NCBI GenBank assembly: GCA_963699165.1
Contig: OY969413.1
Location: 852,562 to 916,561 of the forward strand
Direction of reading: 5' to 3'
From: Candidatus Kaiserbacteria bacterium
GTDB taxonomy: Bacteria > Patescibacteriota > Minisyncoccia > Phycocordibacterales > Phycocordibacteraceae
DNA length: 64,000 nucleotides
Position numbers and translations under genes: made by a program
Notes under the pieces: generated by a model
Database searches by the model: none
Seen by the model: the letters and a program-made list of their open reading frames with translations, nothing else
Told to the model about the DNA's origin: nothing
Shown here: positions 19,991 to 53,710 of the stretch, in pieces
Numbering within the stretch: the first letter of the stretch is position 1
How the letters are laid out: every line of letters starts with the position of its first letter

Positions 19991-20025
19991 TCGGCAATGG
20001 GAAGGTCTGACCTTCCCATTGCCGA
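19991..20025 (+). terminator. perfect 16-bp stem hairpin after wHTH gene
   Basis: cggcaatgggaaggtc tga ccttcccattgccg immediately after the stop; no strong T-run. Confidence 0.45.
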
Positions 20026-20505: not shown

Positions 20506-23500
20506 ATGAAATCGGTAACTACGAAAGCGATCGCGAAGGTCGCGGCAGTGGCAACCGGACTCGCGATGGCAACCTCGATGCTCTCGCTTGCGCCTATCGC
20601 GCACGCGGCCGCATTGACCCCGTCACAGGTCCAGTCAATCCTCTCGCTCCTCACTTCGTTCGGTGCTGACAGCGGCACCATCGCAAATGTCCAGGCATCG
20701 CTTACGGGCGGTACGCCTTCGACGACAACGACGACTACGACTACCACGAGCAGTTCGTCCTACACCTTCACGCGCGACCTCACGGTCGGCTCGACGGGTG
20801 CAGATGTCCAGGCGCTTCAGACGGCCCTCATTGCTGACGGCTACTTGAATATTGCTACCCCGACGACGTACTTCGGTGCTTTGACGAAGGCGGCACTTGC
20901 AAAGTGGCAGGCGGCAAACAACGTCGCTCCGGCGGCCGGATACTTCGGTCCTAAGACCCGCGCTGTCTTCACGACAGGCGGCTCGACCGGCACGACGACA
21001 ACGACGACCGGCACCGGCACGACGACAACGGCAGTGGGCTCAGGCCTTAAGGTCATGCTCTCGCCGACTTCGCCGAACGGCACGGTTCTCGTTCAGGGCC
21101 AGGGCATCGGCGATCTTGGGGACTTCGTCTTCACGAACCCGAGCAATGCTCCTATCAACGTCACCGGCCTTAGCTTCAATCGCACGGGTGTCAGCAATGA
21201 TGCAACCTTGGCCAACGTGTACCTCTACAATGCAGGCACGCGCATCACGGACTCGGCAGGCGTCTCCGCTTCTGCGTTCAGCTTTACAAATCCGACGGCG
21301 CTCTTCACGGTTCCGGCAAACAGCTCCTACACGGTGTCTGTTCGTTCCGATATCGCGGGCAGCTCCTCAGGACAGCAGCTCGGTGTCCAGCTTGTCTCGG
21401 TCAACAGCAACGGTACGCTTGACGGTTCCGTCAGCTTCCCGATTAGCTCCGGCTACCAGACAATCTCGAATGCAATACTTGCAGGCGTGAGCTTCCAGGC
21501 AAACGTGACGCCGAGTAACGGCACGAACATCAGCCCGCAGACCGGATATCCGGTTTGGCAGGACACCGTTTCGGTGACCAATAATCCGGTCAAGTTCTCT
21601 TCGCTTCGCCTCACGAACCTCGGTTCGATTGACACGCAGTATGTGCAGAGCTTGGCGCTCTATGTTGACGGTACGCAGGTAGGTTCGACGATTCCTTCGG
21701 GCGCAAGCCAGTCGGCAATCACCTTCGACCTCTCGGCAAACCCGGTTCTTCTCTCGACTTCGAGCCACATCATCAAGGTACTCGCAAACATTACGGGCGG
21801 CGCGTCCCGCACCTTGAGCTTCTCGGTGCAGCGCTCCTCCGACGCAATGTTTATCGACAGCCAGCTTGGCCAGCCGGTAACTCCGGGTTCCCTTGGCAAC
21901 GTTGCATGGTCCGGTGCGGTTACAGCCGGCCCGGTCACCATCAATTCGGTGTCCGTAGGTTCGGGCGTCTCGGTCTCTCTTGACCCGAGCTCTCCGAGTC
22001 AGTCGGTCGCTTACAGCGCTTCGAACGTGAAGTGGGCAACCTTCGACTTCCTTGCCTCGGGTGAAAACGTAAAGGTCTCCGACCTCTACGTCTACGCCAC
22101 GACAACGGGCGCAGGTGGTCTTGCAAACGGCAAGATTCTTGTGAACGGCGTTCAGGTTGGTTCAACGAAGTCGATTGGAACGTATAGTTCGCCGACGGAT
22201 TTCTCCCTCGGTTCCTCTCTTATCCTTCCGGCCGGACAGACGACGCTTGTCAGCATCTATGGCGATGCCAAGGATACGAGCAACAACAATCTTCCGAACG
22301 GCACGTCGGTTACGGTTACTCTTAATGCCGGGTCGTCAAACGGCCAGGGCCAGAGCTCCCTCAACGCGACGAATGTTCCGGGTGCACCGATTAGCAGCAA
22401 CGGTGTCGTTGTCTCGAACTCACAGCTCACAGCAACTGCGTACTCGGGCTACGGCAATCAGACCGTTGTTCCTGGAAGCAACAATGCCAAGCTCGGGGCG
22501 TTTACGCTCTCGACCGGCTCGACTGAAGGCGTGACGGTGAACACAATCACCCTCTCGCTTTTGGCAGGTGCGGCAGCAGAACTTACGAACCTTACGCTCA
22601 AGGATGACGCGACTGGCAACGTGCTTGGCACGGTCCAGACCACGCCTTCGACCAGCAACTCGTTCTCCGTTAACTACGATATCCCCGTCTCTTCGACAAA
22701 GGTTGTCGATGTCTACGGAAACGTTCTCTCGAATGCAAGCGTAAGCCCGATTCAGTTGACTGTTACCACCGCCACTTCGGGCAACGGTGATGTCACCGGT
22801 TCCCCCGTGAGCGCTTCACAGTCGACTCTTCAGAACATCACTGTCGGCACAGGTACGCTGACGGTAACTCGCGGTGCGGGTGACCCGACCAGCAACAACG
22901 TCCTCGCGGGCGCAAGCCAGGTCCAGGTCGGCGAATTCAACTTCGCATCCCAGAACACCTCGTACACGGTCCAGAATCTCGCGATTCTCGTTCCGAACGG
23001 TGTAGCGTCTTCGGTTACGAACGTCACGGTATCCTACAAGGATGTCAACGGCGCGACCCAGACGGCTACGCAGGCACTTGCTATCAACTCGGCAAACCAG
23101 TTCGCAACGGCGACCTTCACCGGTCTCACCGATTACGTCCCGGCAAACGACTCGTCTAACATCGATGTCTATGTCGGTACGCCGACGGTAGCATCGGGTG
23201 CAACTTCGGGCGCGAAGATTAACGTCTCGCTCGATGAAGGCAACACCAGCACCGCAGTTGACAACACGTTCCGTGCAATCAACAGCGCAGGCGCTGCTAT
23301 CACGACCCCGACCGGCGGTTCAGGTCTGACGCTCGCTTCGAACGGTACCTTCGTCGTTCGCAAGTCGATTCCGACCTTCGCCAACGTCGCTACGGGCAAC
23401 TCGGTTCCTTCCACCGGTTCTCCGCTCTACAAGTTCACCATTTCGGCTGACCCTGCAGGCGCTATCGAATGGACGCACCTCAGGTTCAACGTATCGACGA

Positions 23501-23916
23501 CGTCTACGACGGTTACCAACGCGTATCTGACGGATGACAGCTCGGGCGCAAGCTTGCTCGACACGGGAACGTATGCTTCGACGACGGCGACAACCATCAC
23601 GGTTGACCTTCCGACGAACAACAATACGCTCGCGAAGTACGCGCAGGTCGCAGCCGGTGCAACCAAGACCTATGACCTCTACGGCACGGTCTCCGGTTGG
23701 CCGACGGGTGCATCCCTCACAATCTCGCTTGCTGCCGACACCGGTACTGCTCAAAACAACACAGCTACCGGAACCGTAGCCGCAAGCCCGACAGTAGGGT
23801 TCGTGTGGTCTGACCGCTCTTCGACAAATCCGTCTCACTCGATTTCTTCGAGCGACTGGACGAACGGTTACCTCCTCAAGAACTTCACGTCTAACGCAAC
23901 GACCTACTCACACTAG
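20506..23916 (+). CDS. giant secreted S/T-rich surface protein with peptidoglycan-binding domain
   Basis: Signal peptide (MKSVTTKAIAKVAAVATGLAMATSMLSLAPIAHAA), poly-Thr linkers (TTTTTTTTTSSSS; GTTTTTTGTGTTTT), PG_binding_1-like domain (DLTVGSTGADVQALQTALIADGYL…YFGALTKAALAKWQAANNV), then about 900 aa of beta-rich repeats. Start taken as the ATG at 20506. Confidence 0.65.
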   Translation: MKSVTTKAIAKVAAVATGLAMATSMLSLAPIAHAAALTPSQVQSILSLLTSFGADSGTIANVQASLTGGTPSTTTTTTTTTSSSSYTFTRDLTVGSTGADVQALQTALIADGYLNIATPTTYFGALTKAALAKWQAANNVAPAAGYFGPKTRAVFTTGGSTGTTTTTTGTGTTTTAVGSGLKVMLSPTSPNGTVLVQGQGIGDLGDFVFTNPSNAPINVTGLSFNRTGVSNDATLANVYLYNAGTRITDSAGVSASAFSFTNPTALFTVPANSSYTVSVRSDIAGSSSGQQLGVQLVSVNSNGTLDGSVSFPISSGYQTISNAILAGVSFQANVTPSNGTNISPQTGYPVWQDTVSVTNNPVKFSSLRLTNLGSIDTQYVQSLALYVDGTQVGSTIPSGASQSAITFDLSANPVLLSTSSHIIKVLANITGGASRTLSFSVQRSSDAMFIDSQLGQPVTPGSLGNVAWSGAVTAGPVTINSVSVGSGVSVSLDPSSPSQSVAYSASNVKWATFDFLASGENVKVSDLYVYATTTGAGGLANGKILVNGVQVGSTKSIGTYSSPTDFSLGSSLILPAGQTTLVSIYGDAKDTSNNNLPNGTSVTVTLNAGSSNGQGQSSLNATNVPGAPISSNGVVVSNSQLTATAYSGYGNQTVVPGSNNAKLGAFTLSTGSTEGVTVNTITLSLLAGAAAELTNLTLKDDATGNVLGTVQTTPSTSNSFSVNYDIPVSSTKVVDVYGNVLSNASVSPIQLTVTTATSGNGDVTGSPVSASQSTLQNITVGTGTLTVTRGAGDPTSNNVLAGASQVQVGEFNFASQNTSYTVQNLAILVPNGVASSVTNVTVSYKDVNGATQTATQALAINSANQFATATFTGLTDYVPANDSSNIDVYVGTPTVASGATSGAKINVSLDEGNTSTAVDNTFRAINSAGAAITTPTGGSGLTLASNGTFVVRKSIPTFANVATGNSVPSTGSPLYKFTISADPAGAIEWTHLRFNVSTTSTTVTNAYLTDDSSGASLLDTGTYASTTATTITVDLPTNNNTLAKYAQVAAGATKTYDLYGTVSGWPTGASLTISLAADTGTAQNNTATGTVAASPTVGFVWSDRSSTNPSHSISSSDWTNGYLLKNFTSNATTYSH

Positions 23917-24027
23917 TTCTAGCGCTAGCTACGGTTCTTGAATCTGTGGAAGTTTAACTTTCACAAGGTCCGGCTAGGAAATTGGCCTAGCAGCAAAAAC
24001 CACCTCGAAAGAGGTGGTTTTTGCTTT

Positions 24028-24063
24028 TGTGGTATGCTTTTTGATATGGATATAACAAGAATC
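24028..24063 (+). repeat. 37-bp direct repeat, copy 1 (tgtggtatgctttttgatatggatataacaagaatc)
   Basis: Near-identical to 25343-25379. The two copies bracket the REP array plus RAYT. The copy contains a putative -10 (TGtGGTATgcT) and the first codons (ATGGATAAAACAAG) of the downstream TPR gene. Confidence 0.6.
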
Positions 24064-24448
24064 TGTGGAAGTTTAACTTTCACAAGGTCCGGCTAGGAAA
24101 TTGGCCTAGCGTGAGCGGCCGAAAGGTCTGTCTCAAAGAAAGAACCCCCGTAAGGGGGTTCTTTCTTTTTATCCATGAGCATCTGTGGAAGTTTAACTTT
24201 CACACTGACCCAATCCACCTCCATGAGCATCTGTGGAAGTTTAACTTTCACACTGACTCAATCCACCTCCGGAAGGTCTGACGTTCCGGAACCGGAACCG
24301 GACGCGGCTAAGGGTTGGCCTAGCAGCAAAAACCACTCGCGAGAGGTAGTTTTTTGCGTTTGTATTTCTCTCACATTCCCCAAATGTAAGCATTTGTGGA
24401 AGTTTAACTTTCACACATGCTTGCTTTCCATGTATTTTGTCTGCGGAG

Positions 24449-24489
24449 GTCGTCGCCCTGTGGAAGTTAAACTTCCACAGGGCGACGAC
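24449..24489. promoter_or_regulatory. perfect 41-bp palindrome (20-bp arms) GTCGTCGCCCTGTGGAAGTT a AACTTCCACAGGGCGACGAC
   Basis: Exact reverse-complement symmetry around a single central A, 6 nt upstream of the RAYT ORF. Its core equals the REP consensus made perfect. Confidence 0.7.
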
Positions 24490-24494
24490 TTAAT

Positions 24495-25244
24495 TTGGCT
24501 ACGCTGTGTGGCTTTCGAGTTATATTGATTGCTATGCGAATAGAACCATACGGCATCGGATCGATTCGGCATATCACGCAAAGAGGCGTCCGGGGTTTGG
24601 ATATCATGCGCGACGTTCACGACCGCGACCGCTCGGTTCGCGGGCTCTTCTATCTCAACGACACCTACGCCGATGCAAATTGGCATCGGCAGGTGCTTGC
24701 CGTCGAGCCGTTTTCCCGCCCCCTGCATTGGCCGGAGCGCGATCCGCTCGTGCGCATTCTCGCGTGGACGTTCCTCTCGAATCATTTCCATATCCTCTTG
24801 CAGGAACTACGCGAGGGTGGAACGGCGAAATTCATGCAGCGTTTCTGCGGGAGCATGTCATCTTATTTCAATGTGAAATATCGCGAGAAGGGAGGCCTTT
24901 TCCAAGGTTCGTATCACGCGCGCACTGTTACCGAGGACGAGCATTATCGGTACCTCGCTTTTTATATTCTCGTGAAGAACGTGCTCGAGATGTATCCGGG
25001 CGGCTTGCGTGCGGCGCAAGCCAACTTCGATGATGCGTGGGAGTGGGCGAAGTGGTACCCGTATTCGAGTTTGCGGGATTCGGTCGCCACGGACCCTTCA
25101 CCGATAATCGATGACCCGGACGGTCTCATTAAGGGCATTATCGGCACGGGCGACGCGTACAAACAGGAGGCACGCGAGCTATTCGATTTCCACATGGCAT
25201 CGCGCGGCGAGGAGTTCAAGGCGCTCATGCTCGAGCCATGGTAA
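24495..25244 (+). CDS. REP-associated tyrosine transposase (RAYT) / IS200-like Y1 HUH transposase
   Basis: HUH motif (LSNHFHILLQE), catalytic-Tyr region (GLFQGSYHARTVTEDEHYRYLAFYILVKNV) with layout like E. coli RAYT (…HMHCIW… / …FWEHAIRN…YIYINPVKHG). TTG start at 24495; an alternative ATG lies at 24534. Confidence 0.65.
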   Translation: MATLCGFRVILIAMRIEPYGIGSIRHITQRGVRGLDIMRDVHDRDRSVRGLFYLNDTYADANWHRQVLAVEPFSRPLHWPERDPLVRILAWTFLSNHFHILLQELREGGTAKFMQRFCGSMSSYFNVKYREKGGLFQGSYHARTVTEDEHYRYLAFYILVKNVLEMYPGGLRAAQANFDDAWEWAKWYPYSSLRDSVATDPSPIIDDPDGLIKGIIGTGDAYKQEARELFDFHMASRGEEFKALMLEPW

Positions 25245-25342
25245 ATGCGCGGCGCATCCTGTGAAAGTCAGACCTTCACGGAAAATGTTCACCGGCGATG
25301 GGCGGGGTCGTTGCACGGCCGTCAAAGGCAGATTCCGCGATT

Positions 25343-25379
25343 GTGGTATGCTTTTTGAATATGGATAAAACAAGGAATC
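25343..25379 (+). repeat. 37-bp direct repeat, copy 2 (tgtggtatgctttttgaatatggataaaacaaggaatc)
   Basis: See copy 1. Includes the ATG (25361) of the TPR gene. Confidence 0.6.
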
Positions 25380-26176
25380 AGATGCTTTTACTCGCGGTCG
25401 TTGTCGTGGGAGCTGCGGCGCTCGCCGTATTTGCCGAGAATCAAGTTTCAAAGGCGCCTGCGCAGACGGCTTCCTCTACCATTACCGTTTCCACAAGTAC
25501 GCCCGGCGCAACTGTCGCTGTTCCGACGGTGCCCGCGGCAACTCCCGCGCAAGGCGCTGTCGCGACCGGTCCGTTTCCGATTAACCCCGCGGACCGCATC
25601 GCTTCGTGGACTTTTAAAGGCGCATATAGCGGCAACGCGACGCTTACGAGCCAGGCAAATGCCGACATAACTCATCTCACCGGCCTGCTCGGAAAAGGGC
25701 AGTACGACGATTACGACCTCTATGACGGAATCGCAAACGATTACACGTCGCTCGGCGACGGACAGACGGCATACGATAATTACAATCGCGCGATTGCGAT
25801 TCATCCGAGCAAAGGTCTTGCATACGCGAATCTCGGGCATTTGTTTGACGGGCTCGGCGCAGAGTTCACGGCTGCCGATGCGTACGCGAAAGCGACAGTC
25901 GTTGAACCGACGCAAATGGAATATTACATCCAGCGCCTCGACTTTCTCACGGGCAAGCTTCCAAATGACAACTCGGCAATCCTCGCGGCATTTTCGGATG
26001 CGAGCAAACAGTTCGGCGATGCGGCGCCCATCCTTTCGATAGAGGCCGAGTGGCTTGCCGGACAAAAGCGATACGCCGATGCGATTGCCGCGTGGCAAAA
26101 AGTCGAATCACTTTCGCCGGGTGCGGACAATTCTTCGATTGATGCGCAGATAGCCCGACTTAAAGCAAAAGAATGA
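25361..26176 (+). CDS. secreted TPR-repeat protein
   Basis: N-terminal hydrophobic signal (MDKTRNQMLLLAVVVVGAAALAVFA), T/A/P-rich linker, TPR-like helical repeats (YDNYNRAIAIHPSKGLAYANLGHLF…). Start at 25361 supported by duplication of this 5' end in the direct repeat. Confidence 0.5.
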   Translation: MDKTRNQMLLLAVVVVGAAALAVFAENQVSKAPAQTASSTITVSTSTPGATVAVPTVPAATPAQGAVATGPFPINPADRIASWTFKGAYSGNATLTSQANADITHLTGLLGKGQYDDYDLYDGIANDYTSLGDGQTAYDNYNRAIAIHPSKGLAYANLGHLFDGLGAEFTAADAYAKATVVEPTQMEYYIQRLDFLTGKLPNDNSAILAAFSDASKQFGDAAPILSIEAEWLAGQKRYADAIAAWQKVESLSPGADNSSIDAQIARLKAKE

Positions 26177-28368
26177 AATATATCGAGCGCGCGTATCCGT
26201 GGCTTCTCCTTTCGCCGGTCCTCCTGCCGGTCGTGATTGCGGGCGGACTCATTTACCCGTATCTCGTTCCGAAGACGCTATCGTTCTATGCGATTTCTTT
26301 TTTGGCGTTCGGAGTATTTGCAATCCTCGCCGCTAACGGCCGCACGTTTTTCTGGTCGCGGCTTTGGCAGCCCGAGACATGGTTTCCTGCCGCGCTTCTC
26401 GCGCTCGCGTACATCGCGAGCGCGTCGGGCATGGATTTCTATCAGAGTTTCTGGAGTTTGTTTGTGCGCGGCGACGGACTTCTGATGCTGACCTGCGCGG
26501 TCGGCAGTTATTATTTGATTTTGCTGTATGCCGACCGCGCGTTTTTTGAGCGTTTGCTTCGCGCAGTCGCGGTCATCGGGACCTTTGTCGCGGTGTATGG
26601 CATTGGCGAGTGGATGCTCGGCGGCGGCTCGCGCATCGGCGGCCTGCTAGGCAACGCGGAATTTTTCGCCTGTTATCTCGGCATCGCTCTTTTCGCGACG
26701 CTCGCCGCCGCCGAGTCGCTCCCGCGCGCGTGGCGCAATGCCGCGTATGCCGGCGCTGCTCTGCAGATAATCGCAATAGTGTTGAGCGCGACGCGCGGAT
26801 CGATACTTGCGCTCCTGGTCGTCGCGCTCGTCTATCTCGCGTATGCCGCGTTAAAAGGAAAAGGGAAGCGCCGCGCGTATTCCGCGGGCCTGCTCGCCGC
26901 GCTCGTCGTTTTCGGAGGGTTGTTCTTCGCGTTTCGCGGCGAACTTGCGAAGTCGCCGTTTGCGCCGATTGCGCGCGTCGCCGCAATCTCGGCCTCCGAT
27001 GCCGACGTCGCGAGCCGGCTTTTCATTTGGAAAAACATGGCCGCGCAGATTGAACGGCATCCGTGGCTCGGCATCGGCTCCGAACACATCGACGCGCTGT
27101 TCAATAATTTCTACGACCCGACGCAAATAGAGGAAGAATGGTTCGACCGTTCGCACAATGCGTTTCTCGATTACTTTGCGCAGTACGGCATCGGCGGTTT
27201 GCTTCTTTACATCGCGATTATCGGAAGTTTCTTTACGGCCGCGGCGCGCGAAGCGCGCCGCGGCTCCCGCCGCGTTGCGGGGATTTTCGCCCTGCTTGCG
27301 GTTTTGTACGCCGTTCAAAACTTCTTCGTCTTCGACACCGTTTCTTCTTTCTGGCTTCTGCTTGCGCTGCTCGCGACGTTGACCGCGGCATCGCTTGGCA
27401 AAACCTCCCGGGAAGCGGTGCCGCTGCCGTCGTGGACGCGCTACGTCTCTTGGATTTTTGCGGTCGTCCTTATCGCGCTTCTCATTCCGGTTTCGATTTG
27501 TCCGGCGCTTGCGGCATATGACCTTGCGCATGCCTACGGCTATCAGATTTTAGACCCCGCGAAGAGCGCCGCGTATCTATCGGAGGGTTACGCGCTTCAC
27601 ACCTATGGCAATCTCGAATACGGCTACGAAGCGTACGACATGTATGCCTATCAGCAGTCCGAGATGCTCACGGGAGCGCAGCGTGCAAATGCGTATCAAA
27701 CCGCCGTTTCTATTTTGACGTCGAATTTTGGAAATTACACCTATGATGCGCGCACGGCGCTCGACTTGTCGCTTGTGTTTTCGTTAGCGCCGCAAGGGGC
27801 GGCGGTCGACCAAAAATTGTATTCAAGCGCGCTCGAGCGCGCCATTCGCCTGTCACCGAAACGACCGCAGTCCTGGTATATCGTGGCGAATGCTTCCATC
27901 GCGCAAGCGAATACCTACCCGCCATCTTCCTCGGACCGTATCGCCGGCTACAATGCCGCTGCCGGTTTGCTCTCGCAATACATCGCGCTCGTGCCGAATT
28001 TGTCGATGCCGCATTTCCTTCTCGCCCAGCTTGACTTTGCTTCCGGCGATGCGGCCGCAGCCGCAGCGGAAGCGGCGAAAGGGAAACAATATTACAAGGA
28101 CGACCTCGAGACGGCGCGGCACGCCGCAGGGTATTACGAAAATGTTAAGGACTGGACGGATGCCGCGTTCTTCCTTCGCGAAATCGTTCGGCTCTCTCCG
28201 ACCGACACCGCATCATTGTATGACCTTGCAAAGGTGTTGTACCTCTCGGGAAATCCGGCCGAAGCAGATGCTATTGTTATAGAGTTGCGGACAACTCATC
28301 CGGAAATACTTCCGACCGACCAGAATTTCCTTGCCGCTATTACTGCCTATGAATCCCGTTCGAAATAG
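26173..28368 (+). CDS. O-antigen ligase-like (Wzy_C) polytopic membrane protein with C-terminal TPR domain
   Basis: 731 aa with about 12 TM helices including the Wzy_C-like segment (…GAALQIIAIVLSATRGSILALLVVALVYLA…), then a C-terminal soluble TPR-like region. Stop codon lies inside the first CCCGTT element. Confidence 0.55.
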   Translation: MKYIERAYPWLLLSPVLLPVVIAGGLIYPYLVPKTLSFYAISFLAFGVFAILAANGRTFFWSRLWQPETWFPAALLALAYIASASGMDFYQSFWSLFVRGDGLLMLTCAVGSYYLILLYADRAFFERLLRAVAVIGTFVAVYGIGEWMLGGGSRIGGLLGNAEFFACYLGIALFATLAAAESLPRAWRNAAYAGAALQIIAIVLSATRGSILALLVVALVYLAYAALKGKGKRRAYSAGLLAALVVFGGLFFAFRGELAKSPFAPIARVAAISASDADVASRLFIWKNMAAQIERHPWLGIGSEHIDALFNNFYDPTQIEEEWFDRSHNAFLDYFAQYGIGGLLLYIAIIGSFFTAAAREARRGSRRVAGIFALLAVLYAVQNFFVFDTVSSFWLLLALLATLTAASLGKTSREAVPLPSWTRYVSWIFAVVLIALLIPVSICPALAAYDLAHAYGYQILDPAKSAAYLSEGYALHTYGNLEYGYEAYDMYAYQQSEMLTGAQRANAYQTAVSILTSNFGNYTYDARTALDLSLVFSLAPQGAAVDQKLYSSALERAIRLSPKRPQSWYIVANASIAQANTYPPSSSDRIAGYNAAAGLLSQYIALVPNLSMPHFLLAQLDFASGDAAAAAAEAAKGKQYYKDDLETARHAAGYYENVKDWTDAAFFLREIVRLSPTDTASLYDLAKVLYLSGNPAEADAIVIELRTTHPEILPTDQNFLAAITAYESRSK

Positions 28369-32821: not shown

Positions 32822-33639
32822 CGCATTTACGGCACTCGTCTATACTCCGTCCTACGTGTCTACGAACCGAAAGAACCAAGTGATTTTCGAAGCGGATAGG
32901 CCGTCATAGGCCCGCGCGTTACGTAAACGCGAAAGAACCGCTCGAGGCGGTTCTTTCGTTTCAAAGAGGCACTGTAATTTGACATACGAATATCATTGGT
33001 TGAACCGTCCTTAAAAAGACGGTTCATGTCCGCGACTTGTCGTGGACGAAAATCGAAGTTAGAACGTTAATGATTGTGGTATATAGGTCTCCGTACGAGA
33101 GACAATTAAGAGTGCACGGTGGATGCCTTGGCCTTGGACGGCTATGAAGGACGCGACTAACCTGCGAAAAGCTTCGGGGAGGCGGTTTGTAGCCTTTGAT
33201 CCGGAGATATCCGAATGGGGAAACCCTCCAGTTTTGAACTGGAATCCGCGGAGTAACGTCTGCGAGAAGCGAACCCGGGGAAGTGAAACATCTCAGTACC
33301 CGGAGGAAAAGAGAACAATATGAGTTGCGTTCCATTCAAGCGTATGTTCGTTTGAATGGAACGCGACTCGCGTGATACCCCAAGTAGCGGCGAGCGAAAA
33401 GGGAAAAGCCCAAACCTCTTTCTTCGGAAAGGGGGGTTGTAAGATGTGAACATCGTACTTGTACGAAAAGAGTTATCAATCGTCTGTATAACAGAAGCTG
33501 CTGGGAAGCAGCGCCCAAGAGGGTAATGGCCCCGTATGTGAAATGCATGACGACTCTTGTTCATATTCTTGAGTAGCTCGAGACACGAATAGCTCGAGTG
33601 AATCTGCCGGAACTAACCGGTAAGGCTAAATACGTCCAA

Positions 33640-33680
<41 letters not shown>

Positions 33681-35120
33681 CACCCCGAGAGGGGAGTGAA
33701 ATAGAACTGAACCCGTGTACTTACAAGGGGTCGGAGCGGATGCTTGCATCCGTGACGGCATGCCTATTGAAGAATGAGCCGGCGAGTGTGTGTATCTTGC
33801 TTAGCTAAGCCCTTCCGGGGCGGAGCTTAAGGGAAACCGAGCGTGAATAGCGCGTCTGTAGGATACATACGACCCGAAGCCAGATGAGCTTGCCATGAGC
33901 AGGGTGAAGTTTGTCGAAAGACAAATGGAGGCCCGAACCCGTAGGTCGTACAACGCCTTGGGATGACTTGTGGTAAGGAGTGAAAAGCTAATCGAATCTG
34001 GGAATAGCTGGTTCTCTCCGAAACAGCTTTTGGGCTGGCGTTGCAATAAGTGTACGTGGGGGTAGAGCACTGGAAGGGACCAACAGGGAGAAATCTCGTG
34101 GTTCCTATCAAACTCCGAATACCACGTGCCCGTGCAGCAGTTAGTAGGTGGGGGCGAAGCTCCATCGAACGAGAGGGGAAGAGCCCTGATCGCCACTTAA
34201 GGCCCCTAAATCGACATTCAGTACATCCACAAGGAAGTGAGGACTCATAAACAGTGAGGATGTTGGCTTAGAAGCAGCCACCATTTAAAGAAAGCGTAAC
34301 AGCTCACTCATCGAGAGTCCTTGCGCCGAAGATGATCGGGGTTAAATGTCGTGCCGAAATTGCGGGTTTGGTTTGTTCTGTATACAAACCAAGCGGTAGG
34401 AGAGCGTTCTGTTCGCTATGAAGCTAAAGGGATAACCCATGGTGGAGCGTACAGAAGTGAGAATGCCGGTACAAGTAACCACAATGCGGGTGAGAACCCC
34501 GCACGTCGAAAGACCAAGGTTTCCTCAGCTATGGTGATCAACTGAGGGTTAGTCGGGCCTAAGGGGATGGCGAGAGCCGCACCCGATGGACACACGGTCA
34601 ATATTCCGTGACCGTTTATAGAGGCAATGGAGTGACGGACTGCTGTATGTACTGCCGGTAATTGGATTCCGGTTGGCAGTGCGAGGGCGCGCGTTAGGTA
34701 AATCCGGCGCGCATTACCCCGAGCACTGACACAATTTTCTCCTTCGGGGGAAGAGAGAGTGCAAAGCGCGGTTTCAAGAAAACCTTCTACGCATCAACTC
34801 TATAGACGACCGTACCGCAAACCGACACAGGTGGTCAGGTCGAGAAGACCAAGACGAACGAGTAAGATGTCCTCAAGGAACTCGGCAAAAAAGCGGCCGT
34901 AAGTTAGCGATAAGGCCTGCCCTTCATCCGCAAGGATGGGGGGCCGCAGTGAAAGTTTTCCTGGCAACTGTTTACCAAAAACACAACTCCCTGCAAACTC
35001 GTAAGAGGAAGTATAGGGGGTGACACCTGACCAATGCCGGAAGGTCAACCACGGTGGGTATGCTGCTTCGGTAGTATGCTGGACTGTGTAAGCCCCGGTG
35101 AATGTCGGCGATAACTATAA

Positions 35121-35920
35121 TCGTGGACTCGCTACCACCTGCGCAAGCAGGTCATGAGTAGGGCGATTGTAAAATTCGGCCAAATGCTGGAACAACTGTC
35201 TCGAAAAGAGTTAGAGCATACGCTACCGTGTAGGTAACAATGCGTATGTGCAGTCAATCAGCAGGAAAGGCCGATGCAGGTATTGCCCACGCAAAATAAT
35301 AACTTGCGTATGGACAACACTACAAAAGAGCTCCTGAAACTTTTTCACGGCAAACGAGACGCTCTGCATTATTATGTTGCAGGTTTCGTTGACGGAGAAA
35401 GCAGTTTTAGTGTAGCGATTCTTAAAAATCCCTTCAAAAAAGAAGGGTGGCTGATTAATCCGTGTTTTCAGGTGTATCAACATCAGAATCACAGAGAAAT
35501 CTTGGAGTTATGCAAAGAAGTATTTAAGACCGGAAGAATATATCGCAAAAGCGGTACACATCCCGTCCTAAACTTCAGTATTGACTCAATACGGAATCTA
35601 AAAGAGAAGGTAGTACCTTTCTTCGATAGATATCCGCTCATAACAAAACGCGAATCGTATCAAAAATTCCGGGACATTGTAGTATCAATGGACAGGAAAG
35701 AGCACTTGACCTCTAAAGGGTTTGAGCGTTTGGTACGGCTTGCGTACAGTATGAATCAGCAGGGCAAAGGTCGCAGGAGAACTCTTGAAGAGGTTCTTGC
35801 GACTCAGCCCAAACCTGCATCGGAATCCTCAGAGACTTTACGCCGAACTCACGCTTAGTGGGCAGTGAGATGATAAAGTCCAATCCTCATGGCGACATGA
35901 GGGGCTTCGAGAAATCGAAA
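35121..35920 (+). mobile_element. group I intron in 23S (E. coli position about 1917 region) with LAGLIDADG ORF
   Basis: 23S exon …aactataa | … | cctaaggtagcg…; the E. coli sequence AACTATAACGGTCCTAAGGTAGCG is interrupted by about 800 nt containing ORF 35274..35858. Confidence 0.7.
35274..35858 (+). CDS. LAGLIDADG homing endonuclease (intron-encoded)
   Basis: LHYYVAGFVDGESSFSVAI (LAGLIDADG motif) plus a second half-motif; lower GC than the host; inside the 23S. Confidence 0.8.
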   Translation: MQVLPTQNNNLRMDNTTKELLKLFHGKRDALHYYVAGFVDGESSFSVAILKNPFKKEGWLINPCFQVYQHQNHREILELCKEVFKTGRIYRKSGTHPVLNFSIDSIRNLKEKVVPFFDRYPLITKRESYQKFRDIVVSMDRKEHLTSKGFERLVRLAYSMNQQGKGRRRTLEEVLATQPKPASESSETLRRTHA

Positions 35921-36588
35921 TGCCTAAGGTAGCGTAATTCCTTGTCGGGTAAATTCCGACGTGCACGAATGGTGTAATGACTGGGAAACTGTCTCGAGGA
36001 CTCGCTCGGTGAAAATGCACTTCCGGTGAAGATGCCGGATACCTGTAGTTAGACGAAAAGACCCCAGGAGCTTTACTACAGCTTCGTATTGGCCCTGCGG
36101 GATACATGCGTAGCATAGATGGGAGACATTGAAGCATTCCTTTCGGGGGATGTGGAGTCGTCAGTGAAATACCATTCTTGTATCTTGCAGTGTCTAACCC
36201 CGTTGGGATCCAACGGGGGACCGTGCGTGGCAGGTAGTTTTGGTGGGGCGCTATCCTCCTAAAAAGTAACGGAGGAGTCTATTAAGGTTCTCTAGGCGCG
36301 AATGGAAACCGTGCCGATAGTGTAATGGCATAAGAGAGCTTAACTGCGAGGGGTACTTCCCGAGCAGATGCGAAAGCAGAGCATAGTGAACCGATGGTAC
36401 GCCTTAGATGCGGCCAGAGATTAACGGATATAAGTTACCCTGGGGATAACAGGCTAGTTCCGCCCAAGCGTCCTTAGCGACGGCGGAGTTCGGCACCTCG
36501 ATGTCGGCTCACCATAGCGCGGGGCTGGAGAAGGTCCCAAGCGTTTGGCTGTTCGCCAATTAAAATGGTACGCGAGCTGGGTTCAGAC

Positions 36589-36995
36589 CGTTCAGCAACT
36601 AACAAGAGTTGGTGATTGAACGGTCTGAATCCACGAGGCAATTGTTAGGTGCGTGGAGACGCACTATGCGTCCCGGTAGAGACAAGAACCTCACCAAGGT
36701 TCTGGCTCGCTAAAGCGAGCGTCTCTAACGGGATGCGAAAGACATACTCACGGCGGTCCCGAATAGGAATATTCGGGAAGCAAATCAACTGATATCGGTG
36801 AAATCCAATCTCATTGTGTATGAGAGGACAACACCGAGGGAATTCTTTGCAATCGCAAAGAGACCCGTAGAGACTGAATGTTGATGCTCCAGGCTAAAAC
36901 AATCTCGAAGAGATTGTTCGCCCGAACTTTTGCAACGCAAAAGTTTTAGGGAGTAAGTTACAGTCCGATCCTCCGAGTAATCGGAGTTAACTAGA
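36589..36995 (+). mobile_element. ORF-less group I intron in 23S (position about 2593, I-CreI-type site region)
   Basis: Conserved 23S GGGTTTAGAACGTCGTGAGACAG is split: gggttcaga | about 407 nt | (t)gcgtgagacagg. No ORF. Contains a CCCGTT-palindromic element copy (36671-36733). Confidence 0.6.
36671..36733. repeat. CCCGTT-palindromic element copy inside 23S intron (arms TCCCGGTAGAGACA / GTCTCTAACGGGA + TG)
   Basis: 13-14 bp arms nearly identical to copy 1 (5022-5102), in the same orientation, ending ...aacgggATG. Interior forms two short hairpins (agaacc…ggttct; gctcgc taaa gcgagc). Confidence 0.5.
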
Positions 36996-50978: not shown

Positions 50979-51678
50979 CGATAAAAGTTGTCGCCTTGGG
51001 GAGTAATCCCCAATGATTAATCTTGCTCATAACGGTGAAGCCTGACTGATGGGTGTATAATAATACCCATCAAAGGTAATACCGTGGGAAGTCGACACTA
51101 TCTTTCAGACGCATATTTGGCAGGATTCTTGGACGGAGACGGCTCTGTTGTGGCAACGCTTGAGCGATACCACAGCAAGCGGTTTCCGTATCGTGTGCGC
51201 ATCAAGGTGAATTTCACCCAACATGCAAAACACAAAGATAAACTGGCACTAATGCAAGAGGCGCTCGGCGGTTATGGAGTTATCCGAACCAATGCGCGCA
51301 AAAATCTTGCGGAGCTGGTAATCCAAGAACGAAATCAAGTACAAGCGGTGCTCGCGCGTCTCGTGCCATTTCTTCTAATAAAAAAAGACCAGGCAATTCT
51401 GGCTCTTGAAGTATTAGAGAAAATGAGCTCCAACGAGAAGCATAAACCGAGCACGTTGTCTGAAAGAGCGTATATTCGTATTCTGTCAGTAGTACAGAAA
51501 ATTCGTCGTTTGAATTCCCATACGGGAGGCAAACGCGAGATACGAGTGTTTGACCCCGTAACGACTGAATTTCCGGAGCAACCCGGAATGAAGACGGAAT
51601 CTTCGGATTCTGTAAGACGCAAGCCCCTCGCACGAACGAGGGTGAAAGTATAGTCTGTGCCATAAGAAATTATGGAAT
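50979..51678 (+). mobile_element. group I intron in 16S (after ...GGGACTG, E. coli position about 320s) with LAGLIDADG ORF
   Basis: Conserved …ACTGAGACACGG…CTCCTACGGGAGGCAGCAG is split: …gggactg | about 700 nt | aacgacggcccatactcctacgggaggctgcag. Confidence 0.65.
51084..51653 (+). CDS. LAGLIDADG homing endonuclease (intron-encoded)
   Basis: AYLAGFLDGDGSVVATL motif; 189 aa. Confidence 0.8.
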   Translation: MGSRHYLSDAYLAGFLDGDGSVVATLERYHSKRFPYRVRIKVNFTQHAKHKDKLALMQEALGGYGVIRTNARKNLAELVIQERNQVQAVLARLVPFLLIKKDQAILALEVLEKMSSNEKHKPSTLSERAYIRILSVVQKIRRLNSHTGGKREIRVFDPVTTEFPEQPGMKTESSDSVRRKPLARTRVKV

Positions 51679-52109
51679 AAACGACGGCCCATACTCCTAC
51701 GGGAGGCTGCAGACGAGAATATTCCGCAATGGACGAAAGTCTGACGGAGCGACGCCGCGTGATGGATGAAGTGCTTTGGTACGTAAACATCTTTTACCGG
51801 GGAAGAAATTATTGACGGTACCCGGTGAATAAGGGGCTCCTAACTCTGTGCCAGCAGGAGCGGTAATACAGAGGCCCCAAGCATTACCCGGAATCATTGG
51901 GCGTAAAGGGTGTCTAGGCGGCCATATTAGTCTCTCGTTAAATCCGCGGGCTCAACCTGCGGCATGCGAGGGAAACGGTATGGCTCGAGGGCGTAAGAGG
52001 TGCACGGAACTCATGGTGGAGGGGTGAAATCCGTTGATATCATGGGGAACACCGAAAGCGAAGGCAGTGCACTGGTACGTTCCTGACGCTCAAACACGAA
52101 AGCCAGGGT

Positions 52110-52143
<34 letters not shown>

Positions 52144-52727
52144 CCTCAACGTTGCTCGCTCGTTTTACGGAGTATCGACCCTCTGTGAGACTAAGCTAAC
52201 GCGGTAAGCGAGCCGCCTGGGTAGTACGATCGCAAGATTAAAACTCAAAGGAATAGACGGGGACTCGCACAAGTGGTGGATTATGCGGCTTAATTCGTCG
52301 ATAAACGAAGAACCTTACCAAGGTTAGAAATCCAGCTGCATCCAACTCGAAAGAGATGGAGCCTTCGAGGGTGCTGGACAGGTGATGCATGGTCGTCGTC
52401 AGTTCGTGGTTTGAACTGTTCCCTTCAGTGGGGTAACGAACGCAACCCCCGTTGTCTGTTGCCTATATGGTCAGGCGAGACTGCTCCCTCACGGGAGAGG
52501 AAGGTGGGGATGACGCCAGATCAGCATGTCCCTCTGATACCTTGGGCTGCACGCATAATACAATGGTCGGTACAACGGGTTGCAATGCCGTAAGGCGGAG
52601 CCAATCCTTATAAAACCGACCCCAGTACGGATTGAGGTCTGCAACCGACCTCATGAAGCCGGAATCACTAGTAATCCCGGGTCAGCCAAACCGGGGTGAA
52701 TACGTTCTCGAGTCTTGTACTCGGGTC

Positions 52728-53710
52728 GCCATGCGATCCGAGCATCTAGTTGGTGACTCTTGGAATAGAGAAGTCCAACCGCGCCGTGGCGGCGTGAAGC
52801 GAAATCGCAGTGTCGATACCGCGAGGTATGGCATGAAGGGTGAAAGTAGCAGTGTGTAGCGTGAACGCTAGTTTGTGGCGCCTAGAGTGGGAGATCCCGC
52901 GAGTACAGGGAGAATCCAGCCACACCAAAAGCTCTAGGCGTGTAGTGGCGTCGCGATACATATACACAGATGTTCGGGTTACCGTGGGAGATCTGTTATG
53001 TTCCTCGTGGTAAACTAACCTCGAGGTATGCGGATGAGCAATCATCGTAAATGACATGACAGAAGTCAGCAGAGGTCGTAGTACCGCCGTATGAAAGGTA
53101 AACGCAATACGCGTCTGCTTGAACCGGTAGGGAAGGACCGAATTCGTAGGAAGCCGCTCGACGGAGCATATGTTGCCGGATTTATCGACGGGGAAGGTTC
53201 CTTTTCCGTCAGTATCGGCAAACACGCGACTCTATCGCGCGGACTTGAAGTGCGTCCTGAATTTGAAATTGAAGTGCGTGCGGATGATCGAGAAATTCTT
53301 GAGCGAATTCTCGTTACTGTCGGCTGCGGAAGAATCTATGACTGCTCGTATGAGCGGTACGGATGGTATCCGCATGTCAAATACAAAGTGACGAGCACGC
53401 GCGAGATGGAGGAGATTCTCTTCCCGTTTCTCGATAACAATCCGCTCCAAGCGAAGAAAGCGGAATCGTATCTTCTCTTTAAAGAGATTGTGCTTTCGTA
53501 TCGGCGCAAGGAGCATCTCACCGATGCCGGTTTCAACAACATTCTCGAAACGCGCAATCGATTGCGAGCTCTCGGAAAGAAGGCTAAAACATTTCAGTTA
53601 TGAAATGTTCGCCCAATGAAGAGCTCGCACCTACGGAAACCGCTAGGGTGCAGGAAAGCTGCTTGCCCAGTGGTGTTTGTGAGAGTGGTAGTAATATCAC
53701 AAAACGCAAG
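52728..53710 (+). mobile_element. group I intron in 16S (within CTTGTAC|ACACCGCCCGTCA, position about 1400) with LAGLIDADG ORF
   Basis: …gaatacgttctcgagtcttgtac | about 980 nt | (at)accgcccgtcaagtcaagg…. Confidence 0.65.
53091..53603 (+). CDS. LAGLIDADG homing endonuclease (intron-encoded)
   Basis: AYVAGFIDGEGSFSVSI motif; 170 aa. Confidence 0.8.
   Translation: MKGKRNTRLLEPVGKDRIRRKPLDGAYVAGFIDGEGSFSVSIGKHATLSRGLEVRPEFEIEVRADDREILERILVTVGCGRIYDCSYERYGWYPHVKYKVTSTREMEEILFPFLDNNPLQAKKAESYLLFKEIVLSYRRKEHLTDAGFNNILETRNRLRALGKKAKTFQL

Follow-up and report, generated by a model that had tools for sequence, protein, structure and literature searches.

In the Candidatus Kaiserbacteria contig OY969413.1, a stretch of 64,000 nt (positions 852,562 to 916,561; hereafter the window) contains a gene for a REP-associated tyrosine transposase (RAYT)-like protein, which lies among repetitive extragenic palindromic (REP) sequences between a surface-protein gene (SURF) and a gene encoding a tetratricopeptide repeat (TPR) protein. 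A direct repeat pair of about 37 bp, noticed at this module in an earlier sequence-only reading, was confirmed in the sequence and is not due to chance. The repeat forms the final third of a paralogue, arranged in tandem and internally deleted, of the unit composed of REPs, RAYT gene and TPR promoter. We favour, with a probability of roughly 0.55, a lineage-specific tandem duplication with microhomology deletions in a hairpin-rich hotspot as its origin, and not the scar of RAYT arrival. The sequence-only reading had suggested that a 1.3-kb REP-RAYT block was inserted, or was duplicated or recombined, at the start of the TPR gene; 'duplicated or recombined' was the right part of this suggestion.

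Two units lie between SURF and the TPR gene (Table 1). When 24111-24324 and 24364-25344 are left out of unit 2, unit 1 aligns with the remainder from end to end, with 113 of 122 positions identical (93%); by segment, identity is 47/47 over the REP and CTAG hairpin, 34/40 over the terminator and 32/35 over the promoter. The order is the same both times, namely REP hairpin, CTAG hairpin, terminator, the RAYT block where it is present, promoter and ATG. Both units start with TGTGGAAG at the REP hairpin and end with ACAAG(G)AATC. The three junctions read GAATC/TGTGG (left of unit 1), AATC/TGTGG (unit 1 to unit 2) and GAATC/AGATG (right of unit 2), where the slash marks the breakpoint. On both flanks the pentanucleotide is host sequence: after SURF it forms the 3' arm of a small hairpin in relatives (aaagGAATca), and in the TPR gene it belongs to codons 5-6 (AGG AAT C), the TPR-side site being ACAAGGAATCAGATG. 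The units are head-to-tail, collinear and in the same orientation and share a short sequence at their junctions, which is the arrangement that defines a tandem duplication. A perfect repeat of 52 nt (23940-23991 = 24059-24110) and a repeat of 22 nt (23982-24003 = 24315-24336), both overlooked by the sequence-only reading, establish that the whole 119 nt ending in repeat copy 1 is a paralogue of the RAYT-bearing unit.

The 214-nt segment that unit 1 lacks comprises the terminator term2, a 48-nt tandem REP pair, a second type of palindrome (24268-24288) and a degenerate CTAG hairpin (24307-24324). In the 981-nt segment, the RAYT gene is preceded by a REP (24395-24415) and a long palindrome (24449-24489), and a degenerate inverted REP (25258-25281) lies 3' of it. 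The 48-nt tandem REP unit (24172-24267) is made up of TCCATGAGCATC, the REP and CTGAC[C/T]CAATCCACC, and its two copies are 98% identical.

Table 1. Features of the SURF-TPR interval and its neighbours (positions in the window).
Feature	Position	Strand	Remarks
GAATC pentanucleotide	23940-23944	+	Immediately 5' of first REP; left junction of unit 1
Unit 1 (119 nt)	23945-24063	+	REP, CTAG hairpin, intact terminator, promoter copy 1, 6 codons
Unit 2 (1316 nt)	24064-25379	+	REP A', CTAG hairpin, REP cluster, RAYT gene, promoter copy 2, 6 codons
Repeat copy 1	24028-24063	+	36 nt, TGTGGTATGCTTTTTGATATGGATATAACAAGAATC; ends AATC at REP foot
Repeat copy 2	25342-25379	+	38 nt, TGTGGTATGCTTTTTGAATATGGATAAAACAAGGAATC; ends GAATC, then AGATG
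214-nt segment	24111-24324	+	Missing from unit 1; direct repeat TTGGCCTAGC at bounds
981-nt RAYT segment	24364-25344	+	Missing from unit 1; TTGT at bounds
REP hairpin copy A	23945-23965	+	TGTGGAAGTTTAACTTTCACA
CTAG hairpin copy 1	23970-23992	+	CCGGCTAGGAAATTGGCCTAGCA; conserved hairpin
term1, intrinsic terminator	23992-24025	+	15-bp perfect stem, GAAA loop, T tract; abuts promoter copy 1
Degenerate term1 copy	24325-24363	+	34/40 identity to 23992-24030; stem disrupted
term2, intact terminator	24135-24168	+	90 nt 3' of orphan ATG, 5' of RAYT gene
Extended -10 box, copy 1	24030-24038	+	TGGTATGCT; 7-nt spacer, orphan ATG 24046
Extended -10 box, copy 2	25344-25352	+	TGGTATGCT; 8-nt spacer, ATG 25361
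Orphan open reading frame (ORF)	24046-24096	+	16 codons, MDITRICGSLTFTRSG and stop; runs into REP A' and CTAG hairpin
RAYT-like HUH/Y1 transposase gene	24534-25244	+	236 amino acids (aa)
TPR gene	25361-26176	+	271 aa, N-terminal hydrophobic helix; conserved across Kaiserbacteria and Minisyncoccia
SURF, surface-protein gene	20506-23916	+	1136 aa from given ATG; PG_binding_1; upstream neighbour
Wzy_C/TPR membrane protein gene	26173-28368	+	Conserved downstream neighbour

The 17-nt core of the repeat, TGTGGTATGCTTTTTGA, occurs at exactly two sites in the window (24028 and 25342). With up to three mismatches allowed, these are still the only sites, against 0.13 expected, and two were reached in 1 of 100 shuffles. 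The alignment of the copies extends beyond the core to 36 and 38 nt at about 92% identity. Three differences had been counted between them, and the count holds; their type is one substitution (T24053 in copy 1, A25368 in copy 2) and two single-base indels (GA-TATGG in copy 1 vs GAATATGG in copy 2, and CAAG-AATC vs CAAGGAATC), and not three substitutions. Some positions given by the sequence-only reading required correction: copy 2 starts at 25342 instead of 25343, and the 16-codon orphan mini-ORF, which does exist, starts at ATG 24046 instead of 24043. Copy 1 had been placed before the first REP and the repeats had been said to bracket the whole module, but REP 23945-23965 already lies upstream of the terminator and outside the repeats, so that the REP cluster is only partly enclosed.

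The same arrangement is present in an independent assembly and is thus not an assembly artefact of the window. In the metagenome-assembled genome GCA_049279115.1, contig JBAPNL010000080 is identical at 567 of 567 positions over a stretch that begins at the SURF stop codon, includes copy 1 and reaches the long REP palindrome, and copy 2 is found without mismatch in three further contigs (contig 70 of GCA_049279115.1 and two Logan contigs). Independent assemblies of the region break at REPs, as repeats would predict, and short-read assemblies break at the long palindrome. A metagenome collection in which the species is absent contained the 17-nt core at 88 loci, none of which matched past the core or encoded TPR, RAYT or SURF; considered as alternative alleles, these were rejected as chance matches, and no RAYT-less allele was among them. 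Protein clusters contained only two alternative start calls of one TPR protein and no variant N-terminus.

Direct repeats that flank a transposase-like gene could be read as a classical target-site duplication, generated by transposition of REP-RAYT into the TPR start. At 36-38 nt with three differences, these are far longer than any such duplication, for which 2-14 identical bp are expected. Further, the 82 nt upstream of copy 1, covering REP, hairpin and terminator, are also paralogous to the RAYT-bearing unit; hence neither a target-site duplication nor a simple insertion leaving 37-bp flanks can account for the arrangement. Insertion of the 1.3-kb block at the TPR start is also contradicted by seven relatives in which RAYT is syntenic and the repeat is lacking. 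To our knowledge, HUH/Y1 transposases make no target duplications, as established for IS200/IS605. Such a duplication is therefore extremely improbable as an explanation of the repeat, and we say the same of chance (0.13 sites expected for the core alone) and of an assembly artefact, given the identical structure of the independent assembly.

The repeat represents the 5' control region of the TPR gene: 7-8 nt separate an extended -10 element from the ATG, and the first six codons are also included. The working promoter and start of the TPR gene are those of copy 2. This copy was correctly said to hold the true ATG (25361) and first codons, which match the N-termini of homologues. The N-terminal consensus of 18 TPR homologues is M-x-[ILVF]-[TS]-[KR]-x-Q-W. 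Copy 2 encodes MDKTRN(Q) and copy 1 encodes MDITR, which is nearer the consensus and keeps its Ile; this match to the family N-terminus makes copy 1 a genuine orphan start, as had been proposed. Compared with the consensus, copy 1 has two single-base deletions and copy 2 has one substitution (Ile to Lys), and the orphan ORF is out of the TPR frame after codon 5.

For comparison, 33 related loci (designated by L and a number) were fetched, and the TPR start was placed in 30 loci, the window counted among them. The sequence T[GA]TGGTAT[CGT]CT is found upstream of TPR in 29 of these 30 orthologous loci, and TGGTAT is invariant in those 29, which supports the earlier view of TGTGGTAT as a promoter element in the case of the TPR gene. 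The box ends 8 nt before the TPR ATG in 15 loci, and the distance is 9 nt in seven loci and 7 nt in three. Because this spacing varies by roughly one base, it is the DNA that is constrained, and the in-frame translation 'VVS..HM' is not a coding constraint. No Shine-Dalgarno sequence is present before the TPR ATG, and none fits in 8 nt. In the same genome, -10-like boxes are also located 6-12 nt before the ATG of the genes for FtsK, a 263-aa protein, DUF7342 and RAYT, again without a Shine-Dalgarno sequence. Leaderless genes with extended -10 promoters are common in Actinobacteria and Deinococcus. The TPR gene is similar in that TGn-TAnnnT ends 7-9 nt before an ATG that has no Shine-Dalgarno sequence, and in that conservation is at the DNA level with about one base of spacing variation; it differs in its hexamer consensus, which is TAT[CGT]CT and not TATAAT. 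Judged from the sequence, the TPR mRNA is probably leaderless and made from an extended -10 promoter (TG-G-TATGCT), with a transcription start that we infer from the position of the box.

As a general promoter consensus TGGTATnCT was not supported: the 64 kb contain 3 sites where 1.7 are expected, and the repeat copies account for 2 of these. The exact box is thus specific to the TPR gene and not enriched in the window. Related TGn-TAnnnT boxes do precede other genes. An extended -10-like box, TGTGGTATATA, is located at 33075-33085, 21 nt upstream of the 23S start, as a single site, and would set the transcription start only a few bases before the mature 23S 5' end. The TGTGGTAT sequence is likewise found at 33075.

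The gene order SURF, TPR and Wzy_C-TPR protein is conserved, and a SURF orthologue lies upstream of TPR in about 20 relatives. A RAYT orthologue (236 aa) is located between SURF and TPR in L006, L007, L011, L013 and L027; L019 and L020 contain one in the same interval together with about 4 kb of extra genes. The orthologues of these seven relatives are 60-74% identical, a level similar to that of the flanking genes. At this position, L021, L024 and L026 have a RAYT of a second, distant type (30-34%), and there is no RAYT in L005, L008, L009, L010, L023, L028, L032 and L033. Uninterrupted SURF-TPR junctions, for which the sequence-only reading had proposed a search in related genomes, do occur in L008, L009, L010, L023, L028, L032 and L033, with 113-184 nt from SURF stop to TPR ATG; the L005 interval spans about 2.5 kb and contains other sequence. 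The RAYT tree is roughly congruent with the flanking-gene trees, and neighbour-joining trees of WZY, RAYT and SURF are too star-like to separate vertical inheritance from repeated gain.

In RAYT-less loci, L019 and L024, the terminator AAAAACCACCC...GGGTGGTTTTT runs directly into GTTTTGTGGTAT, as term1 runs into copy 1. Unit 1 is collinear with the RAYT-less junctions of L023, L010, L008 and L009 from the SURF stop to codon 6, and term2 matches the post-SURF terminator of L019 and L020. None of the seven loci with a RAYT orthologue has a second promoter copy upstream of RAYT, and the duplication is specific to this lineage. The RAYT-to-promoter junction of the window, GGCAGATTCCGCGAT/TGTGGTAT, resembles its L006 counterpart, GGCAGTTTCTGCGTA, which suggests that the filled arrangement, with RAYT adjacent to the promoter, is older than the repeat. 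The terminator AAAAACCACC...GGTGGTTTTT was also considered as a genome-wide repeat driving homologous exchange and was rejected, since neither the window nor eight relatives have it outside this locus.

In the favoured explanation, the unit between the post-SURF GAATC and the GAATC of TPR codons 5-6 would have been duplicated in tandem. The join would have formed at the GAATC microhomology, perhaps as long as GAATCnGTGG if codon 8 was once the TGG of the family. The upstream copy would then have lost 214 nt between the TTGGCCTAGC repeats and 981 nt, including RAYT, between the TTGT repeats, and what was left of it would be a hairpin-terminator-promoter stub similar to the locus without RAYT. 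An equivalent route would be for alleles with and without RAYT to recombine unequally. We infer this order of events, and slippage or illegitimate recombination stimulated by the many hairpins may have brought them about.

Where short direct repeats flank a palindrome, it stimulates deletions and duplications between them independently of RecA. In the window, short direct repeats are present at all three junctions and the region is packed with hairpins. The locus resembles slipped-mispairing rearrangements near palindromes in its head-to-tail units, in the 5-nt microhomology join at the foot of a REP and in deletions bounded by direct repeats of 10 and 4 nt within hairpin-dense sequence. Shyamala, Schneider and Ames are said to have reported, in 1990, REP sequences at the join points of tandem duplications in Salmonella. 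The present join is between a REP flank and coding sequence and not REP to REP, and at 1.3 kb the duplication differs in scale from those studied in enteric bacteria, which range from kilobases to megabases. The 48-nt tandem REP unit points to duplication activity in this very region.

Several observations weigh against a duplication in situ. Divergence between the paralogues is uneven (0/47, 6/40 and 3/35 differences), and term1 is a perfect hairpin in unit 1 and degenerate in unit 2, which fits a separate RAYT-less allele at least equally well. A duplication in situ must be followed by two deletions, three events in all, and the collections searched (metagenome scan and protein clusters) contained no intermediate or alternative allele. 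Both REP-left junctions, moreover, are exactly 3' of a host GAATC, as a target-specific HUH enzyme would give.

The first two of these observations would be better explained by allelic recombination, in which a RAYT-less and a RAYT-bearing allele, brought together by DNA uptake, would have undergone unequal crossover at GAATC and left both intergenic versions in tandem. Unit 1 resembles a functional RAYT-less junction, with its intact terminator and ancestral Ile codon, and its match is to L023 and L016, RAYT-less relatives that nest within the same clade. The presence, absence or replacement of RAYT varies between close relatives, such as L019 and L024, and the uneven divergence of segments suits alleles that evolved separately. 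However, no collection searched contained a RAYT-less allele of the species, an illegitimate 5-nt join is still needed, and on present data the outcome is indistinguishable from that of the in-situ route; we regard allelic recombination as decidedly unlikely.

Duplications of a similar kind are found in relatives. In the RAYT-free L016 (6753-7888), a module of CTAG hairpin, terminator and GTTTTGTGG(TAT) occurs in three copies (41 nt at 100%, 65 nt at 92%). Two small HicB/HicA-like cassettes (HicA_toxin 29.2 bits) are enclosed by these, and the first cassette gene directly follows the first promoter copy. The sequence-only reading had named duplication in relatives without RAYT as the finding that would count against it, and L016, with its triplicated module and no RAYT, goes part of the way. 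In L024, a 97-nt repeat (97%) of REP, CTAG hairpin and terminator (1412-1508 and 5700-5796) surrounds RAYT and about 4 kb of genes. The flank duplications of L016 and L024 thus appear to be a general habit of the hotspot and not a RAYT signature. L019 and L024 share their 4-kb insert at 87% nucleotide identity and have short WZY branches; their RAYTs are of different families (72% vs 31% identity to the window RAYT) with different palindromes at the same positions, which implies, as judged from sequence comparison, that RAYT may be replaced together with its REPs at a fixed site.

Other rearrangements were seen in the same interval. In L019 (7781-7849) a REP is located inside the terminator, with the 18-nt direct repeat CAAACAAAAAACCAC(T/C)CC on both sides. 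Tandemly duplicated genes are present in L014 (6713-7709) and L018 (1842-7921), with 250 nt at 92% and segments of up to 300 nt at 79-94% identity, and these again mark the SURF-TPR interval as rearrangement-prone.

A CTAG inverted repeat, CCAGCTAG[G/A/C]-N7-[C/T/G]CTAGCAA, is located 35-90 nt past the SURF stop and just 5' of the terminator in more than 20 relatives from the range L005-L032. The window contains it at 23970-23992, 24089-24111 and 24307-24324, and at each locus it is almost confined to the post-SURF site. Five of its pairs are invariant and the innermost covaries (GC 15, AU 6, CG 1) with no mispairs. No Rfam family matched this hairpin, which could be a 3'-untranslated RNA element or a dimeric protein-binding site.

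Copy 1 is best described as a decaying orphan, which may still fire and would then give a predicted short transcript that passes through REP A' and the CTAG hairpin and ends at term2, well short of RAYT. A selected function, in which copy 1 drives a small RNA transcript of the REPs and hairpins or aids RAYT expression, would be consistent with its identical -10 box, with a 7-nt spacer inside the range of relatives and with the duplicated promoter halves of L016, which do precede real genes. It is nevertheless very unlikely, as the intact term2 lies 90 nt past the orphan ATG and before RAYT, copy 1 carries a frameshift and a spacer deletion, no relative retains such a copy and no Rfam family matches the region. 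A search of Rfam with 23800-25500 at a permissive threshold returned only sub-threshold hairpin look-alikes.

The RAYT protein itself is divergent. Its Pfam Y1_Tnp score (25.9 bits vs a cut-off of 23) places it only in the wider IS200-like superfamily, and it fails the curated family model (NCBIfam REP_Tyr_transpos, 32.3 bits vs a cut-off of 80). The HUH motif H84-F85-H86 and Y140/Y144 are invariant across 34 family sequences. An AlphaFold2 model (predicted local distance difference test 86, predicted template-modelling score 0.86) gave 4ER8_A as top Foldseek match (E 1.3e-4, probability 1.00, template-modelling score 0.59 on target), followed by the TnpA proteins of IS608, ISDra2 and IS200. 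Searches of the PDB with the sequence and with an 8-sequence profile gave no match, and fold comparison alone succeeded. The RAYT-like family numbers 621 detectable sequences, almost all of them about 236 aa long. Many come from contigs only about 1 kb in length, a sign that assemblies may break at the flanking palindromes. Distant genomes (L127-L132) have the family in other contexts, and in two of four examined it is just 3' of a large surface-protein gene.

The window has one RAYT copy, and all six REP copies lie within 540 nt beside it, with none elsewhere in the window (about 6% of a genome of about 1 Mb). The palindromes of 10 relatives' loci (5-17 kb) are likewise confined to the RAYT neighbourhood. 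Across the RAYT gene, the upstream REPs and the long palindrome face the inverted degenerate REP, and the seven RAYT orthologues are each flanked on both sides by their own distinct palindrome. The long palindrome is a perfect 20+20 palindrome on the REP core, 44 nt before the RAYT ATG (-25.6 kcal/mol, z -10.9). The second palindrome type, GGAAGGTCTGAC(C/G)TTCC, which is the REP family of the relative L013, is present at 20000-20016, 24271-24287 and 25262-25278, ahead of SURF as well as within the REP cluster. The degenerate REP 3' of RAYT is a hybrid of the two palindrome types.

Known REP/RAYT systems include TnpA-REP of E. coli with its bacterial interspersed mosaic elements (PDB 4ER8) and the REPIN-RAYT (REPIN, REP doublet forming hairpin) systems of Pseudomonas (PMC3337134, PMC3116915, PMC3479197). 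The window locus resembles them in most respects, as a single HUH/Y1 gene flanked by inverted palindromes, with a cognate palindrome family for each orthologue, a GTGG head of the REP comparable to the GT[AG]G tag, and 4ER8 as best fold match of the enzyme. Its long perfect palindrome beside RAYT is similar to the 'long palindromic REP singlets', which have been attributed to REPIN excision (PMC3337134). It differs in the size of the enzyme (236 aa vs about 165 aa in E. coli), in scoring below the NCBIfam cut-off with no PDB match by sequence, in palindromes that are local to RAYT in the window and 10 relatives, with no dispersed population seen in the stretches examined, and in its host, which belongs to the Patescibacteria (Minisyncoccia/Kaiserbacteria). 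No description of RAYT in Patescibacteria was found in the literature searched.

In elements of the IS200/IS605 type, the enzyme cleaves 3' of a short sequence located at a hairpin foot, and the ends are joined via a circle. The locus shares with the peel-and-paste elements IS608 and ISDra2 the HUH/Y1 fold, subterminal hairpins on both sides of the gene, junctions immediately 3' of a host pentanucleotide without classical target duplication, and a RAYT segment that is precisely missing from unit 1 at a 4-nt repeat. In contrast to those elements, there is no sign of multiple copies or activity here, the junction motifs are non-uniform, and L016 has a like flank duplication without such a gene.

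Joining catalysed by RAYT itself is a possible, though unlikely, origin of the units. A TnpA-like enzyme would cut single-stranded DNA 3' of GAATC (loosely G[AC]AT[CT]) at the 5' foot of the hairpin; cuts at the SURF and TPR sites would free a circle of REP, RAYT, promoter and GAATC, and its reinsertion 3' of GAATC in a sister or RAYT-less chromosome would yield exactly the observed order. The 981-nt gap of unit 1 would then be a clean excision, with TTGT/GGTAT as the exact empty site for the RAYT segment. The pentanucleotides 5' of the REPs (GAATC twice, GCATC twice and GCATT, with CGCCC at the long palindrome) speak for such cutting, GAATC is host sequence outside the palindrome at both junctions, and its occurrence in TPR exactly at the breakpoint has a chance of about 1 in 1000. 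The HUH motif, the conserved tyrosines and a best fold match to the E. coli RAYT on its REP hairpin (4ER8) point the same way. On the other hand, three junction motifs (GAATC, TTGGCCTAGC and TTGT) are too many for one enzyme specificity, L016 has equivalent flank duplications and no RAYT at the locus, the REPs are not dispersed in the 64 kb and so give no measure of target preference, and RAYTs are regarded as single-copy and non-mobile (PMC3337134). A broader proposal takes the GAATC/REP junctions as the footprint of RAYT strand transfer and the SURF-TPR interval as a cassette-exchange hotspot bounded by hairpin modules, in which RAYTs of two families, HicAB cassettes and 4-kb blocks would be swapped with flank duplication; we consider this joint proposal improbable.

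The rRNA genes in the window are unlinked, with matches at 33096-36677 (23S) and 51498-52752 (16S). The 23S match covers 3582 nt against a model of 2925 positions, corresponding to an insertion of about 650 nt. The 16S match is only 1255 nt against a model of 1533 positions, and a group II intron D1-D4 domain (53027-53138; 47 bits, above the gathering score) lies 275 nt past it, which suggests that the 16S gene may be interrupted.

The direct repeat on either side of the transposase-like gene is not an insertion scar; what is visible in it is the end of a tandem duplicate that has decayed. The duplicated promoter and start are an ordinary structural rearrangement. Three further features are of use beyond this locus. 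The conserved leaderless-type promoter box at the TPR gene across Kaiserbacteria and Minisyncoccia is a reusable fact for a poorly known group; a divergent RAYT-like family (621 sequences of about 236 aa) is widespread and has co-varying, locally confined palindromes; and the intergenic region is a hotspot in which inserts are repeatedly gained, lost and swapped with duplication of the terminator-promoter flank. If the GAATC junctions were made by an enzyme, they would offer defined substrates to test cutting and joining by RAYT. If the strand-transfer footprint were true, the locus would document that RAYT units have moved in nature in Patescibacteria, and their 5-nt target would be definable. 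The main value of the locus is in its clean junctions and hotspot behaviour, which could make RAYT activity testable.

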